A stretch of 11,744 nucleotides of DNA from a virus, in UHGV virus genome UHGV-0126733; one strand, written 5' to 3'. Under the pieces are notes generated by a model, which worked only from the letters and a program-made list of their open reading frames with translations, did no database searches and was not told the DNA's origin. Position numbers and translations under genes: made by a program. This document shows, one piece after another, positions 1,653-11,091 of the stretch; positions within the stretch are counted from its first letter, which is position 1; each line of letters begins with the position of its first letter.

Positions 1653-2207
1653 TTATCTTGACTCAAATACAAATCTAGAAGAGATGAGCTTATCAAGCAT
1701 TTTCATAAGTAAATCCTTACTCTCACCACCATTTATATATTTATTAAAGTTAGACTCGAACTCATGCCAAACTTTTTCTAACTCAGTATTATCAAATAAG
1801 TGCTCTGTCGCAAACCATGAAGACTGGCAACAATCGAAAATACTCAAAAGTTCATCAAATCTTTTAACATTCTCTTCTCCCAACTCAATTTGCTGACTAA
1901 TAAGATCTACATCTTTAAATAGCCATTTCGCAATAACTTGCTCTCGTTCATCATTGAGTTGCTCGGGGTCAATATTGACAGGCATAAATAATAGAGCTGT
2001 CTTTAATTTCTTTAATGCATTCCTAAAATCTATTTTTACTTTTGTTTTCTCTTGTTCCCGCCACGTAAACAATGCCTTGAACGCCAAAAACAAAGTAACA
2101 ATAGTAGCTCCAGCACTCACCCAAGATGCAATCATTGCCCAACAAGCCCACTCAGCAGCAGCACGGTTTGCTACAAGTGTCTCATATGCAATATAATTTT
2201 CGTTCAT
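1653..2207 (-). CDS. Hypothetical membrane-anchored protein; AT-rich cargo gene (moron) between spanins and HNH
   Basis: 184-codon ORF with a GAGG Shine-Dalgarno 5 nt before the ATG. One N-terminal hydrophobic helix (approx. aa 20-45, AEWACWAMIASWVSAGATIVTLFLAFKALF) followed by a charged, helix-rich soluble domain. Very AT-rich relative to flanking phage genes. No family recognised. Confidence 0.6.
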   Translation of the reverse strand: MNENYIAYETLVANRAAAEWACWAMIASWVSAGATIVTLFLAFKALFTWREQEKTKVKIDFRNALKKLKTALLFMPVNIDPEQLNDEREQVIAKWLFKDVDLISQQIELGEENVKRFDELLSIFDCCQSSWFATEHLFDNTELEKVWHEFESNFNKYINGGESKDLLMKMLDKLISSRFVFESR

Positions 2208-3303: not shown

Positions 3304-3630
3304 TTACTCCTTAGAGCCACCAAACTTATTACCGATTACTCTCATTGCAGCCCCACGAATAGCATCGACCCCGATTAGCCCAACGCCGCCACCAATGGCA
3401 ACAGAAAGAGATTTAGGCCATCCGACATACTCAAGAGCGGATGCAAAAGTCAGCGTCAGAGCACCACAGAGCAAAATCTCGAGCGTTTTTCGTTTCCAGC
3501 CCCCACCACCGCCAAAATATGCAATGCGCAAGCCAGCCATAACAATCGACATAATCACTGCGCCCAGCGGTGTGTCTCCACGCCACCAGCTCTGGACCAA
3601 CTCCAACCAGGTATTTGGGTTATGAGGCAT
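3304..3630 (-). CDS. Putative holin (about 3 TM segments), not lambda S family
   Basis: 108 aa immediately upstream of the endolysin. Three hydrophobic segments (LGAVIMSIVMAGLRIAYF, LEILLCGALTLTFASALEYV, LSVAIGGGVGLIGVDAI), a GGGGG motif and a charged C-terminal tail. The call rests on position and topology; the family is not recognised. Confidence 0.7.
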   Translation of the reverse strand: MPHNPNTWLELVQSWWRGDTPLGAVIMSIVMAGLRIAYFGGGGGWKRKTLEILLCGALTLTFASALEYVGWPKSLSVAIGGGVGLIGVDAIRGAAMRVIGNKFGGSKE

Positions 3631-4030: not shown

Positions 4031-4780
4031 ATGCTCATTCCAACATCTCTATCAAAACAACCAGTAATCGAAGCTGCTTTCGAAATGCGTTTTTCTAAAG
4101 AAACACAAATATCGGAAATAGTTCCAGGGTTTCTTTTTCACGCTCTAGGTTGTACAAAACCAGTAATTAGTTTACCACCCAGTCAAATACCTAAAAATGT
4201 TCGTGAGGGAGATGAACAATTACATTACGCAGTTGTCAGTCGCCTCGAAATCGAAGGGTACTATATTGGACTAAGTGACCATGGTGTTGTTGTATCCACC
4301 AGCACCAAATATCAAGGGTGGAGTCATTTTAGAGAAAAAATCATTCATGTATTAAATGAGCTTAACAAATTAAATTTAAATGACAACATCATCCGCTACT
4401 CATTAAAGTATGTAGATTTTTTCCCAAAAGAAGACGATTCTAATTTATTTGATAAGCTAAACGTCAGCTTAAATATGGCTGGCGAGTCTATGTCTAATTA
4501 TCCGATCAATATCAGAATCGATAAAAATGAAGGCGCATTTCTAAATATAATTCAAATATTATCTCATGCTTTAGTCATGTCAGATAATGGAGAATTTAAT
4601 AAAAAAGGACTAATCCTAGACATAGACAGCATTAGGCAAATCACTAATACTGATGAAATAGATAAGTTTAAAAACGAACCCAAAAAAATTCTTGATGATC
4701 TTCACGCCTGTAATAAATTAGCTTTCTTTAGTTGCCTTAAAGAGTCAACAATTCAAGAACTAGAACCATCCTACAAATAG
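4031..4780 (+). CDS. Hypothetical protein, first gene of AT-rich cargo operon (249 aa)
   Basis: Clean ORF, soluble (no signal peptide or TM segment), AT-rich codon usage. First of three co-oriented, tightly spaced genes. No catalytic motif recognised. Confidence 0.65.
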   Translation: MLIPTSLSKQPVIEAAFEMRFSKETQISEIVPGFLFHALGCTKPVISLPPSQIPKNVREGDEQLHYAVVSRLEIEGYYIGLSDHGVVVSTSTKYQGWSHFREKIIHVLNELNKLNLNDNIIRYSLKYVDFFPKEDDSNLFDKLNVSLNMAGESMSNYPINIRIDKNEGAFLNIIQILSHALVMSDNGEFNKKGLILDIDSIRQITNTDEIDKFKNEPKKILDDLHACNKLAFFSCLKESTIQELEPSYK

Positions 4781-4795
4781 AAATGGTGGTATGAT

Positions 4796-5140
4796 ATGTA
4801 TCCGTCTCATCATGTTTATCGAGCTCAACTTCAAGTATTAACTTTGGTTTTATATAGTCTGCATATAACTGCATTAACAGACATTGCCCAAAATCAACAG
4901 CATGGTCCTCAACAAAGTTTAATCGTCAAAAATCACGCTTTGGAGTATAAGTCTTCAACTACCGATTCAGTTCATTCCATCACACAAACATATAAAGCAG
5001 GGAGCACAATCTCAGTTGATCAAAGACTTGCAGTCTCGATGACAAACTTTTATGAAAAATTATCAACAAACCAGGTGTCTTTAGGCAGTGAAATAAATAA
5101 AGTCGTTCATGCTTCACTGTGGGATTTATACTTGGATTAA
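4796..5140 (+). CDS. Hypothetical small protein, second gene of cargo operon (114 aa)
   Basis: GGTGGT Shine-Dalgarno about 6 nt upstream of the ATG. Its stop TAA (5138-5140) directly abuts the GTG/ATG of the next gene, suggesting translational coupling. It fills the 360-bp gap between the flanking genes. No recognisable domain. Confidence 0.45.
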   Translation: MYPSHHVYRAQLQVLTLVLYSLHITALTDIAQNQQHGPQQSLIVKNHALEYKSSTTDSVHSITQTYKAGSTISVDQRLAVSMTNFYEKLSTNQVSLGSEINKVVHASLWDLYLD

Positions 5141-5143
5141 GTG

Positions 5144-5758
5144 ATGAGTAATAACATTTTTGATATCGAGAAATTCAAAGATCAAATTCCATATTATTTA
5201 ACAGCTCCTCAAAAAGAAGGGCTAATAAATGCACTTAGAGATTTCCCTGAAAACACTAACTACTACCTTAGCAATTATCATGATGATCTGAAAAATGCTG
5301 CACTTCAGGGAGATATATTTAAGGAGCTTACAGTATATTCAATTAAAGGGACTAAAAAAACACGAGGCATTATATTAAGCAACAGTTGCGATATAGATAC
5401 AAGTAATAATCGTGATGTGCCAATGCGTGCAGTCTTTGCTCCGTTAGTAAGTTTATCTAAGTTCGAAGCTATTCTTCTCTCCAACGGAGTTTCTAAGACT
5501 TCAATAGATAGCAAAATTGATGCTATAAGGAAGCAGTTAATTACTAATATTTTTTATCTTCCTGAATCAGACAACTTAGAAGAATGCATCGTTTTTCTTG
5601 ATGATGTATACCAATTACCAACGGAAGAATTACAAAAACTCTTGAATGATAAATGCAAAGCCATAACTTTAAGTCAAGTTGGTTTCTACATTTTACTATT
5701 CAAAATATCTATTCACTTTTGTAGATTCCATGAAAACATACAACGATTCGATCATTAA
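5144..5758 (+). CDS. Hypothetical protein, third gene of cargo operon (about 204 aa)
   Basis: ORF starting at ATG 5144 (track uses the GTG at 5141). AT-rich, with a hydrophobic/amphipathic stretch near the C-terminus (VGFYILLFKISIHF). Followed immediately by a terminator. Family not recognised. Confidence 0.6.
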   Translation: MSNNIFDIEKFKDQIPYYLTAPQKEGLINALRDFPENTNYYLSNYHDDLKNAALQGDIFKELTVYSIKGTKKTRGIILSNSCDIDTSNNRDVPMRAVFAPLVSLSKFEAILLSNGVSKTSIDSKIDAIRKQLITNIFYLPESDNLEECIVFLDDVYQLPTEELQKLLNDKCKAITLSQVGFYILLFKISIHFCRFHENIQRFDH

Positions 5759-5785
5759 GGCGGTACTACCGCCTTTTATTATTTT
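5759..5785 (+). terminator. Rho-independent terminator of the cargo operon
   Basis: GGCGGTACTACCGCC hairpin (5759-5773; 6-7 bp GC-rich stem) followed by TTTTATTATTTT (5774-5785). Begins 1 nt after the operon stop codon and overlaps the stop codon of the convergent Q gene. The reverse strand lacks a U-tract, so it is unidirectional. Confidence 0.6.
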
Positions 5786-6128
5786 ACACAAGTATACTTA
5801 CAACCCCCTCTATAAAACCGATTGCGGTTTGCAACTCCTTCCTAATAGTGCCATCAGAGCACCTTCTCTTTTTGGCAATAGTGCGTAATGAGATACCAAT
5901 AACAAAGTGGGATATGATGAGCTCATATTCCTCTGGTTTATACCTTCTCAACCGAGCCACACAACTGTCTATCATAATGCCTTCGTCATCATCACACTGA
6001 ATCCGTGACTTTTTGCCATGAGGTAAAAGCCCCTTGAAGCCTGCTGCTACCGGCTGCCAGTCCACACCACTGTTGTCTGCTGCAGCCCATGCTCCCCAGC
6101 GGTCCAATACTTCATACATATCACGCAT
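5784..6128 (-). CDS. Late-gene antitermination protein Q (QuuD / phage-82-type family)
   Basis: From ATG at 6128: MRDMYEVLDRWGAWAAADNSGVDWQPVAAGFKGLLPHGKKSRIQCDDDEGI...CSDGTIRKELQTAIGFIEGV matches the E. coli QuuD-type pattern as I recall it (ERWGAWAA, AAGFKGL, SRxQCxDDD, CSDG, IEG). The track ORF begins at an upstream TTG (6143); the ATG has GGAG 8 nt upstream. Confidence 0.85.
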   Translation of the reverse strand: MRDMYEVLDRWGAWAAADNSGVDWQPVAAGFKGLLPHGKKSRIQCDDDEGIMIDSCVARLRRYKPEEYELIISHFVIGISLRTIAKKRRCSDGTIRKELQTAIGFIEGVVSILV

Positions 6129-6146
6129 CAACTTACTCCACAAAAA

Positions 6147-7972: not shown

Positions 7973-8362
7973 TCAGGCGGCTGCACCCGCCGGTTTCTCA
8001 TACTTACTGATAGTGATCTCGACCTTCCCTTTCGGGATAACCGGTCCCCACTCCACCAGCATTCTTTTCACCTGTCTGTCGTCTTCCCACACACCCGCGT
8101 GGGTCAGGGCGTCAAACAGCGCCTTGTTATAGTTGTCCAGATCGCGGATCCGGTTATCCGGAGGAAACAACACGATCTCCACTGAAGCAGGTGCCGACGT
8201 TGGTTTCGGCAGACGACGTAACTGCTCAACTATTGCTGCGCACGCCGCGCTCTGAAATTTTCGCCCCGCCTCGCTTATCAGGCTCTTACCAGCAAATGCC
8301 CCTTTGTTGGGGTGTCGCCAGTACGTGTTCACACTGGGCGGGAAAGGAAGGATCAACTTCAT
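7973..8362 (-). CDS. rusA: RusA-family Holliday junction resolvase
   Basis: 129 aa; LPFPPSVNTYWRH near the N-terminus, the RDLDN motif, and FDALTHAGVWEDD match the RusA family. Start ATG overlaps the upstream stop (ATGA). Confidence 0.85.
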   Translation of the reverse strand: MKLILPFPPSVNTYWRHPNKGAFAGKSLISEAGRKFQSAACAAIVEQLRRLPKPTSAPASVEIVLFPPDNRIRDLDNYNKALFDALTHAGVWEDDRQVKRMLVEWGPVIPKGKVEITISKYEKPAGAAA

Positions 8363-8685
8363 ACTTTCAGGCCCCTCTCATGTAACCAGTGGGCTGCACG
8401 CAGCCTGGCGTTTTCCTCACCGGCAAGCAGTGCGCGGATAATCCCGACCGCCTCGCTGTCGTCGTCCTTCACTGCGGTATGAAGCGTGATCCCCCGGGCC
8501 ACGCCACGCTTTATCGTGATGACGCCTTTTTTCTCCAGTGCGCGAAGATGCTCCACGGCTGCATTCACTGAACGGTATCCCAGCATGGTTGCCACCTCCT
8601 GATTGGTTGGCAGAAAGCCACGCTCTTGCTGGTAAGAAATCAGAATATCCAGCACCTGCTGCTGGCATTGAGTTAACGTCGTCAT
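8359..8685 (-). CDS. LexA N-terminal DNA-binding-domain homologue lacking the S24 peptidase domain
   Basis: 108 aa. LTQCQQQVLDILISYQQERGFLPTNQEVATMLGYRSVNAAVEHLRALEKKGVITIKRGVARGITL aligns by eye along the E. coli LexA N-terminal winged-HTH (LTARQQEVFDLIRDH...[33 protein letters not shown]), with NAA-x-EHL of the recognition helix conserved. Too short to contain the Ser/Lys cleavage domain. ATGA overlaps at both ends. Confidence 0.75.
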   Translation of the reverse strand: MTTLTQCQQQVLDILISYQQERGFLPTNQEVATMLGYRSVNAAVEHLRALEKKGVITIKRGVARGITLHTAVKDDDSEAVGIIRALLAGEENARLRAAHWLHERGLKV

Positions 8686-9335
8686 GCCGCCATCTCCCTA
8701 ACCAGTTTTTCCGCCTGCTGGCGAACCTGCGCCAGAAACGCCTCACCACATGCCTCAAGTTCATCGCGCCCGATGTAGCTGATTGCCGGTCCCTTCCAGG
8801 TCTTGTCGAAAACAGCAATAGCACCAGCGAAGAAAGCGCCTGTCGGCACCTGCTTCTCATCCTTCGGGATAAACCAGGCAGGCAGTTCAAAACCAATACG
8901 CCCGCGAATAAAAGCAATATGGTCCGCATCTTCCGGCCACCACACTTCGCTGGTGGCAGCTTTGATCAGGAAAACATAGCGCCCACCCTTATCACGCATG
9001 GCACTGGCATGTTTCATGATGTAACGCATGCCGGTGATGTATTGCCCCTCATGCTGACTGGCGCGGCTGTATGGGGGATTACCAAAGGCAGCCCCTTTAA
9101 GCTCCGCAAGACGTTCTGACCAGTCATGCGCCAGCGCGTTGTCTTCCGCCGTGTAATACGCAGCACATTTGGCGTTATCACCGTCAGTGAACAGATCCAG
9201 AACAAACGGGCCAAACAGGGTGTTAATTCCCCAGAAAATGTTATCCGGCGTGCGCCACTGATCGCCCACTTCCTTCAGTTCATGGGCTGGTTTGTTCCGC
9301 AGTTCCACCAGCGCCTGGCAATATTTATTACTCAT
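8682..9335 (-). CDS. Phage DNA N6-adenine methyltransferase (Dam-like)
   Basis: Contains the NPPY catalytic motif in AFGNPPYSRA. Preferred start is ATG at 9335 (MSNKYCQ...) with GGGGG about 5 nt upstream; the track ORF begins at an upstream GTG (9368). First gene of the minus-strand early operon. Confidence 0.85.
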   Translation of the reverse strand: MSNKYCQALVELRNKPAHELKEVGDQWRTPDNIFWGINTLFGPFVLDLFTDGDNAKCAAYYTAEDNALAHDWSERLAELKGAAFGNPPYSRASQHEGQYITGMRYIMKHASAMRDKGGRYVFLIKAATSEVWWPEDADHIAFIRGRIGFELPAWFIPKDEKQVPTGAFFAGAIAVFDKTWKGPAISYIGRDELEACGEAFLAQVRQQAEKLVREMAA

Positions 9336-9601
9336 TAAGCCCCCACGTAATTCCCTGACAGATACCACTCTTCACCCGATGCAGCGCGCTTGCTGCTTTT
9401 CCGTAAGCACCGCTCCTTGTTGTTGGGGAATAACCAGGTCCACCTCGCCTGATGTGGCTAAAAGCAGGCACATAACAGCTAAGTATTTTCAACCAGAGAG
9501 AATCCTTAGCGTTGTGGTGAATGCGGCTCAGCGCACGCGGGTTAAGGTTGAGGCTGACAGTCGACCTTCTGTGGATACCCACCCGTCTGGTGTGCAACCT
9601 T

Positions 9602-9710
9602 CGCCAGGCACCGGGAGGCACCCGGCACCACAACTTTATGCTGTGTGTAGTCCTGGCGGTACCAGTTTGTACCCTTGCTTCCGGCTGGTACCGCTCTTTT
9701 TACAAAACAG
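9602..9710 (+). promoter_or_regulatory. Structured leader upstream of yfdP-like gene: nested stem-loops, terminator-like hairpin with U-tract, and boxA-like motif
   Basis: Perfect 10-bp inverted repeat GCGGTACCAG (9656-9665) / CTGGTACCGC (9685-9694) followed by TCTTTTT (9695-9701). An upstream stem CGCCAGG (9602-9608) / CCTGGCG (9652-9658) overlaps the terminator's left arm by 3 nt, so the two structures are mutually exclusive. It encloses a CCGGG-AGGCA-CCCGG hairpin (9611-9625). CGCTCTTTTTACAA (from 9692) resembles boxA (GCTCTTTAACAA). Confidence 0.4.
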
Positions 9711-9838
9711 AGAAGAGCATCACCGGACGACGGGCTCATAACCCAATCCATCCGGGCGGCTGCCACCGCAGGTGTTCTTCTCTGTTTTGTGGAGAAACCA
9801 ACCGACCTTGCAGGGTCGATATGATGAGGAGCAGCAAA

Positions 9839-10201
9839 ATGGCTAGCGAACGCAGTACTGATGTGCAGGCATTTATCGGGGAGCTGGACGGCGGCGTATT
9901 TGAAACCAAAATCGGCGCAGTTCTCAGTGAAGTCGCTTCCGGTGTGATGAACACGAAAACCAAAGGGAAGGTCTCACTCAATCTGGAAATCGAACCGTTT
10001 GATGAGAACCGTGTGAAAATCAAACACAAACTCTCATATGTTCGCCCGACTAACCGCGGGAAAATTTCCGAAGAAGACACCACCGAAACGCCGATGTATG
10101 TCAATCGCGGTGGTCGCCTGACTATTCTGCAGGAAGACCAGGGACAATTACTGACTCTTGCCGGTGAACCTGACGGAAAACTCCGCGCAGCAGGTCGTTA
10201 A
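9839..10201 (+). CDS. yfdP: YfdP-like hypothetical protein (120 aa)
   Basis: ATG at 9839 with GAGGAG 7 nt upstream. Size and position (immediately before the yfdQ-like and yfdR-like genes) match E. coli CPS-53 yfdP as I recall it. The track ORF from 9521 adds an Arg-rich, GC-rich N-terminal extension that looks non-coding. Confidence 0.6.
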   Translation: MASERSTDVQAFIGELDGGVFETKIGAVLSEVASGVMNTKTKGKVSLNLEIEPFDENRVKIKHKLSYVRPTNRGKISEEDTTETPMYVNRGGRLTILQEDQGQLLTLAGEPDGKLRAAGR

Positions 10202-10266
10202 TATCGTTCTTAATAAACTGATTATTTATCTCATCACTGAATATCTTTATATAGTGAGGACTTATT

Positions 10267-11091
10267 ATGTCTCAGAACTTAGACGCAACCGCAATTAATC
10301 AAATCCATGCCCTTATTTCTGCTCAGGGTGTTAATGAAATTATCAGTAAGATTGGTGCCGATGCTGTGGCATTGCCTGAGAATTTCCGCATTCATGATCT
10401 GGAAAAATTTAATTTAAATCGCTTCCGTTTCCGTGGTGCGCTTTCCACTGCCAGCATCGATGACTTTACCCGTTATTCTAAAGATCTTGCAGATGAAGGC
10501 ACCCGCTGCTTTATCGATGCCGATAATATGCGAGCAGTCAGTGTGCTTAACCTGGGTACTATTGATGAACCAGGTCACGCAGATAACACCGCCACTCTCA
10601 AACTGAAAAAGACAGCACCGTTCTCTGCCCTGTTGTCTGTTAACGGCGAGCGTAACTCCCAGAAGTCACTGGCAGAATGGATTGAAGACTGGGCCGACTA
10701 CCTTGTGGGCTTTGATGCTAATGGTGACGCCATTCAGGCAACAAAAGCGGCTGCGGCAGTCCGTAAAATCACGATTGAAGCAAACCAGACCGCTGATTTT
10801 GAAGATAATGACTTCAGCGGCAAACGCTCCCTGATGGAGTCTGTCGAAGCGAAGACCAAAGACATTATGCCAGTGGCATTTGAATTTAAATGCGTTCCGT
10901 TTGAAGGTCTGAAAGAACGTCCGTTTAAATTACGCCTCAGCATTATCACTGGCGATCGTCCTGTACTGGTTCTGCGCATTATTCAGCTGGAAGCGGTGCA
11001 GGAAGAAATGGCTAACGAATTTCGTGATCTGCTTGTTGAGAAATTCAAGGACAGCAAAGTAGAAACCTTTATTGGTACTTTCACCGCCTGA
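10267..11091 (+). CDS. yfdQ: YfdQ-like protein (DUF2303 family), 274 aa
   Basis: Clean 274-codon ORF with a GTGAGGA Shine-Dalgarno upstream. Size and operon context match CPS-53 yfdQ. Family assignment is from memory, not a search. Confidence 0.7.

Follow-up and report, generated by a model that had tools for sequence, protein, structure and literature searches.

The virus genome UHGV-0126733, which we analysed as one stretch of 11,744 nucleotides (the window), carries a gene for a LexA-like protein of 108 residues with the DNA-binding head of a LexA repressor and an end of its own. The head derives from a gamma-proteobacterial LexA, and a helical hairpin of ~35 residues stands where LexA has its S24 self-cleaving and dimerising domain. 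Judged from its sequence, the gene looks like a LexA gene severed right after the cleavage site and then given a new end. It is intact and selectively maintained. The feature is very common and already annotated in E. coli. We put forward, as a tentative model that may well prove wrong, that the protein serves as a LexA surrogate, a damage-insensitive repressor of SOS-box-like targets.

The gene lies at 8359..8685 on the minus strand, with an ATG start and its stop codon at 8359-8361 (open reading frame (ORF) list, Pfam and PHROG). Residues 1-65 match the Pfam family LexA_DNA_bind (PF01726, a model of 65 positions) with E=1.8e-17 and 63.3 bits, the cut-off being 23.7 bits. By phmmer, the protein matches the LexA chains of the PDB at E of about 1e-14.

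A LexA-type winged helix-turn-helix spans residues 1-68 (8482..8685, minus strand) according to an AlphaFold2 model, Foldseek and phmmer. The model, made from 12 family members with a mean pLDDT of 80, places helices at residues 6-22, 28-35 and 40-52, strands at 56-58 and 66-68, and a disordered linker at 71-75. On the Escherichia coli LexA structures 1lea and 3jso, the chains of the latter being DNA-bound, residues 1-68 superpose with a root-mean-square deviation of 1.0 Å over 67–69 residues at 48–50% identity (Foldseek).

The recognition helix SVNAAVEHLRALEK, assigned by alignment to E. coli LexA, covers residues 39-52 (8530..8571, minus strand). Its string S39-V-N-A-A-V-E-H-L-R-A-L is identical to E. 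coli LexA at 9/12 positions. LexA contacts DNA with S39, N41, A42, E44 and E45 (PMC3091678; PMC13416735) and reads operator positions 14-18, the CAG being essentially invariant (PMC5999292). The window protein has S39, N41, A42, V44 and E45 there, so 4/5 contact positions are kept. The 142 tail-bearing family members hardly vary at S39, N41, A42 and the wing residues R64-G65-I66.

The self-cleaving part of LexA is absent. PF01726 is the only Pfam domain of the 108-residue protein, and no S24 peptidase domain is found among its Pfam and NCBIfam matches; hence, RecA-stimulated self-cleavage is impossible. The LexA alignment ends at LexA residue 86, and the protein stops ~20 residues beyond the cleavage-site position. 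The LexA equivalog model TIGR00498 gives 65.5 bits, below its cut-off of 110.95, and is matched only at positions 1-91 of 203. Thus, the protein is LexA-derived yet not LexA, and with no peptidase domain and a score below the cut-off it falls outside LexA proper.

These results bear on a preliminary description of the same DNA, which had proposed a LexA winged helix-turn-helix with an NAA-x-EHL recognition-helix pattern, too short at 108 residues for the autocleavage domain, and had named alignment and superposition with the LexA N-terminal domain as the check. The PF01726 match and the superposition bear out the first of these, the identity level and the predicted structure both pointing to the LexA fold. 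The helix pattern is real, and the missing autocleavage domain agrees with the sole Pfam domain and with the end of the LexA alignment.

The homology to LexA does not stop at the wing but extends across the hinge, where IIRALLAGE of the window protein aligns with VGRVAAGE of LexA (phmmer). Here Ala88-Gly89 is aligned with LexA Ala84-Gly85. The dipeptide is predicted at a helix end, is not kept in divergent members and has no catalytic domain in cis.

The C-terminal helical hairpin, residues 74-108 (8362..8466, minus strand), is a putative dimerisation or partner-binding module as judged from the AlphaFold2 model and family conservation. The model gives it helices at residues 74-87 and 93-103. 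Its pattern EA..hhRALLA.E..AR.RA..WL...G is kept in homologues of only 37–49% identity from Cronobacter, Klebsiella, Salmonella, Atlantibacter and Kosakonia. For relatives of the tail, the PDB was searched with a tail profile and Pfam with single tails, and the matches were at chance level only.

The tail is probably an oligomerisation or partner-binding module that replaces the C-terminal dimerisation domain of LexA. It is conserved and under selection, which was missed when the preliminary description saw merely an absent domain. The isolated N-terminal fragment of LexA binds its operators specifically but more weakly.

The gene is maintained by selection. The 121 full-length copies in the fetched loci represent 82 distinct alleles at the nucleotide level, with an intact gene in 82/82, and the ratio of nonsynonymous to synonymous polymorphism (pN/pS) over these alleles is 0.084 overall, 0.048 in the winged helix-turn-helix and 0.13 in the tail. 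A degenerating pseudogene is ruled out by the intact alleles and the overall ratio. Three other loci encode a protein 100% identical to that of the window. One of them belongs to a prophage of the APEC strain E123 that appears to be complete, and there the protein is annotated as WP_032235543.1, 'LexA family transcriptional regulator'.

It is also widespread: of 5,426 complete E. coli genomes, 2,222 have it, a genome holding 4 copies at most, and its annotation there is likewise 'LexA family transcriptional regulator'. It is found in 61 GenBank phage records, among them SfV (as orf42), SfII, SfIV, cdtI, mEp460 and the Stx2a, Stx2c and Stx2k phages, and in at least 575 IMG/VR contigs by a scan that returned only relatives at ≥96% identity. 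E. coli K-12 presumably lacks it, CPS-53 retaining remnants of the neighbours only.

The protein family is PHROG 362 ("transcriptional repressor"), matched over the full length (residues 1-108 to positions 1-106 of 106, E=6.3e-57). The window protein is a member of this family, that is, of SfV orf42 and of pham 237, sharing full length, 93–100% identity and the same neighbours. The window copy differs from the family only in that its prophage has lost the immunity region, with nothing else substantive. In the Stx-phage pangenome, the LexA-like family is pham 237 and bears no functional comment (PMC8136144).

Neither the LexA-like protein nor the neighbouring unknown genes match any defence system in PADLOC. 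A CARF match there (E=0.0016) was put down to generic winged helix-turn-helix similarity.

The gene overlaps both of its neighbours. The TGA of dam overlaps its ATG (8682..8685, minus strand) and its own TGA overlaps the ATG of rusA (8359..8362, minus strand), each overlap reading ATGA, or tcat on the plus strand. The preliminary description had concluded translational coupling to Dam and RusA from these ATGA overlaps; both are present, and the ATGA at both ends is common to 33/33 distinct junction contexts among relatives. A Shine-Dalgarno motif AGGGAG (8694..8699, minus strand) lies within the 3′ end of dam, 8 nucleotides 5′ of the LexA-like ATG. In phages without the LexA-like cassette, this motif serves rusA instead.

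The upstream gene dam (8682..9335, minus strand) encodes a phage N6-adenine methyltransferase (PF05869, E=1e-45; TIGR01712, E=1.7e-76), the boundaries being the RefSeq ones of the E123 prophage (locus L001) and the open frame reaching a GTG at 9368. The downstream gene rusA (7973..8362, minus strand) encodes a Holliday-junction resolvase (PF05866, E=1e-14; PHROG 34). Further downstream lies the gene of the late-gene antiterminator Q (5784-6143, minus strand; Pfam scan).

In the relatives, the order is PerC, Dam (not always), the LexA-like protein, RusA, a KilA-N protein, DUF968 and Q. This order belongs to the nin (delayed-early) region, which runs from the replication genes to the late-gene antiterminator. 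E. coli, Shigella and Cronobacter all keep the position between replication genes and Q, and the Cronobacter homologue has the same neighbours. The rusA start is found at +323 in 80 and dam in 63 of the 83 loci.

In three loci (L249, L255 and L308), dam is joined straight to rusA by the same ATGA, and the LexA-like gene is precisely missing. This direct junction in phages without the gene marks it as a discrete cassette. From such junctions, it is gained and lost as a cassette at the overlapping start and stop codons, and the cassette belongs to the nin region of SfV-like lambdoid prophages.

The Klebsiella homologue (P0265), of 130 residues and in a cluster of 1,017 sequences, is placed otherwise, 3′ of dinI and just 5′ of DUF968 and the lysis genes in an apparent operon (L084 5361-6393). 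No repressor or replication genes are found in this locus of 12 kb. The dinI promoter there, TTGAAC-17-TATACT, has a perfect SOS box (27 bits) over its −10 element. Upstream in the same locus, a PARIS-like pair (AAA_15 and DUF4435) is also seen.

The proposed mechanism would run as follows. The hairpin would make the LexA-like protein dimeric, and the dimer would bind palindromic operators with CTG-type half-sites, which would be SOS-box-like and quite possibly genuine SOS boxes. As it could not be cleaved with RecA's help, its repression would be insensitive to damage. Its synthesis would accompany that of Dam and RusA after the early operon of the phage has been switched on, when the host LexA would already be destroyed. 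LexA-type operators of the phage, of co-resident elements or of the host would then be repressed anew.

Candidate targets favour this model, since related phages carry strong canonical SOS boxes at orf48 and the cI-like gene. In SfV, the SOS box TACTGTAAAAATAAACAGTG of 22.5 bits (L003 34170-34189) covers codons 3-9 of orf48, which encodes a DNA methyltransferase and is located between Q and the lysis genes. This box occurs in at least 120 IMG/VR stretches. The matrix behind these scores rests on 20 E. coli SOS boxes and gives approximate values.

The second box lies in the linker-coding part of the cI-like XRE-S24 repressor gene and reads TACTGTTTTT(A/G)(C/T)ATACAGTA, with 23–27 bits. The cI-internal SOS box of related phages is TACTGTTTTTACATACAGTA, and a near-perfect 20-bp box of 25.8 bits, TACTGTATGTAAAAACAGTA, is within the cI-like gene (L001 14611-14630; L009 5546-5565). 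The box-bearing part of this gene is in at least 120 IMG/VR stretches. A LexA site inside a repressor gene might serve an internal promoter or act as a roadblock.

The recognition helix of the window protein, 9/12 identical to LexA, speaks for an SOS-box-like target as well; cyanobacterial LexAs, which have another operator, differ at positions 41, 42, 44 and 45 (PMC13416735). The Klebsiella homologue also favours the surrogate model by its place behind an SOS-box promoter and dinI in an apparent operon. Its autoregulation at the dinI SOS box was considered as well and is weakened by L44-L45 in its recognition helix.

The LexA-like gene accompanies the phage SOS boxes in 29/35 and 27/32 of the loci with sufficient flanking sequence, and each box is carried by less than half of the gene-bearing loci. 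This co-occurrence is explained by shared lineage. It is ruled out as functional evidence, as ~90% of such nin regions carry the gene anyway, and so lends the surrogate model no weight.

Phages with the identical LexA-like protein have other SOS-boxed morons too, namely a dinI-like gene behind tandem boxes next to the integrase gene (L004 18278-18586) and a gene for a 162-residue protein behind three SOS boxes (L005 205-819).

Several observations weigh against the surrogate model. The E44 of LexA is V in the window protein, and none of the 142 members has E at position 44, where V, A, N, L, F and T occur. At position 45, 81% of the divergent members have E or D and a Klebsiella subgroup has L; in the dinI-linked Klebsiella protein the pair is L44-L45. 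One SOS box is common to all hosts of the family; the variation at positions 44 and 45 in spite of this argues against a family held to the host operator. Strict mimicry of SOS-box recognition is thereby left uncertain.

The DNA around the gene is likewise unfavourable. The window has no exact CTGT-N8-ACAG, and its five one-mismatch matches compare with 4.07 expected by chance, none of the five (0/5) having an AT-rich spacer. By the position-weight matrix, the best window site scores 8.8 bits, whereas genuine boxes have 13.2 bits or more, up to 27. The preliminary description had found no canonical box in the intergenic regions by eye, and the exact scan and the matrix agree over the whole window. 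The Cronobacter relative similarly has no SOS box.

Two further points count on the same side. Dimerisation through the tail is what we infer, and full-text literature searches turned up no experimental or functional work on this protein. The lack of such study may be due to the absence of the gene from E. coli K-12.

The closest characterised analogue, though distant kin, is gp6 of the Bacillus tectivirus GIL01, the only truncated LexA homologue known to be characterised. It activates transcription and does not compete for SOS boxes. It is a truncated LexA homologue that activates the late promoter P3 (PMC6182141). Although 44% identical to the host LexA, gp6 binds GaCACAn-nTGTGaC and not the host LexA box (PMC6182141), which speaks against the surrogate model too.

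The likeness of gp6 to the window protein is that each is a LexA DNA-binding domain without the peptidase in a temperate phage, and gp6 sets the precedent that such a protein can be a functional regulator. They differ in that gp6 is an independent truncation of a Gram-positive LexA and has 66 residues, ending at the wing without a tail. BLASTP finds no local alignment between the two at E≤100. Moreover, GIL01 uses the host LexA for lysogeny, whereas the intact relatives of the window prophage have their own cI-like S24 repressors.

Compared with the N-terminal domain of E. coli LexA, the window protein has the same fold, most of the recognition helix including S39, N41, A42 and E45, the R-G-I wing and the hinge homology. 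E. coli LexA has the S24 domain, Ser119/Lys156 and E44, whereas the window protein is without these, has its own 35-residue hairpin and is encoded by a phage gene of the nin region.

The principle proposed here, a RecA-proof LexA head that holds SOS operators repressed after damage, is that of the lexA Ind- mutants such as S119A. These are laboratory constructs, whereas the window protein occurs in nature as a diverged paralogue that has a tail of its own. The lexA(Ind-) cells are unable to induce SOS (PMC2577331).

It is quite possible, though on balance doubtful, that the protein is instead a phage-specific transcription factor, its LexA head having drifted towards an operator carried by the phage alone. 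It would then activate or repress a phage promoter, for example so as to time late or accessory genes, and leave the host SOS regulon untouched. The gp6 precedent with its different palindrome and P3 activation agrees with this, as do the regulatory neighbours PerC, the KilA-N protein and Q. The 44/45 pairs V-E, A-E, N-D, L-L and others, set against a constant host box, would fit phage-by-phage co-evolution. However, no candidate operator was found, and the genes of the conserved block abut or overlap with almost no intergenic DNA between them. The helix of the E. coli group is still that of LexA at 9/12 positions, with S39, N41, A42 and E45 kept. Lambdoid late genes are under Q antitermination, which needs no activator.

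A decoy or modulator that contacts RecA filaments, the LexA or cI catalytic domain, a protease adaptor or RNA polymerase through its tail or hinge is very improbable. Its appeal is that the tail is conserved, under selection and like nothing in the PDB and Pfam searches, and that the hinge is homologous to LexA with Ala-Gly at the cleavage-site position. Phage modulators of LexA or RecA are known in GIL01 gp7 and DinI. The Ala-Gly, however, is not kept in divergent members and is predicted to be helical. Above all, the winged helix-turn-helix is the most constrained part, and S39, N41 and R64-G65-I66 are nearly invariant. Constraint of this strength on it and its DNA-reading residues would be expected solely where contact with DNA is important.

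The window copy itself may be a special case. Compared with the intact E123 prophage, ~4.7 kb are missing between window positions 9415 and 9654, the deletion junction being at 9415..9416 by BLAST of the window against that prophage and by its annotation (L001). The missing stretch held most of PerC, the replication genes, Rha, ymfL, the cro-like gene and the cI-like repressor gene. It is replaced by 238 bp at 9416-9653, which in SfIV-like phages lie left of the immunity region.

The same junction is found in the more degraded prophage of E. coli ACN001 (L002), where the LexA-like gene is also lost. The exact arrangement of the window occurs in no complete E. coli genome of the collection.

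With the loss of the immunity and replication region, both early promoters are gone. SfV has a single annotated internal promoter, that of dam, and in the window its −35 element is replaced at the junction. A consensus scan finds no sigma-70-like promoter in 8300-10300. Hence, the window copy may be silent unless another promoter reads through. The placement in the phage early operon, as given in the preliminary description, stands for the family and does not for the window, where the deletion has removed the upstream part of the conserved block and so decapitated the operon, its downstream part being whole.

That the gene is altogether a silent passenger of this defective prophage, its protein not made in this strain, is improbable. 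The loss of the repressor gene, the replication genes and both early promoters fits it, as do the missing −35 element of the sole annotated internal promoter and the failure of the scan to find a promoter-like site within 1.6 kb upstream. On the other hand, the ORF is intact, and its protein is identical to the copies in intact prophages. The family is clearly functional by its pN/pS of 0.084, and the consensus scan may miss read-through or weak promoters.

Two other parts of the window hold unassigned genes. At 4031-5758 on the plus strand, three genes lie between Q and the holin gene (3304-3630, minus strand), antisense to the late transcript. In RefSeq, the first is a TIGR04255 family protein and the other two are hypothetical, and none of the three matches Pfam or PADLOC. 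They look like a moron cluster at the site where SfV has its SOS-boxed methyltransferase. An ORF of 184 residues (1653-2207, minus strand), with the HNH endonuclease gene on one side and the spanin genes on the other, is hypothetical in RefSeq and has no match in Pfam or PADLOC.

As to its consequences, the surrogate model reaches beyond this phage. In its furthest form, which we consider rather unlikely, a RecA-proof LexA surrogate would be present in ~41% of complete E. coli genomes, and its dimer, formed through the hairpin once DNA damage has set off the early operon of the prophage, would re-occupy SOS boxes and turn the host SOS regulon back off while the loss of host LexA still goes on. 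It is just as doubtful that the same surrogate would also silence colicin operons, antirepressor-controlled prophages, dinI-type morons and the phage's own methyltransferase and cI-internal sites.

If SOS boxes are bound, E. coli would have, in a very common prophage gene, an inherent brake on its response to DNA damage. Mutagenesis, antibiotic tolerance and colicin release would be affected, and so would the choice of which co-resident prophage is induced, including the Shiga-toxin phages. If the protein has its own operator, it would add to the phage-specific regulators and be a second case, evolved independently, of what gp6 exemplifies. Under both readings, this protein of 108 residues with a soluble fold and clear reporter assays is an easy experimental target.

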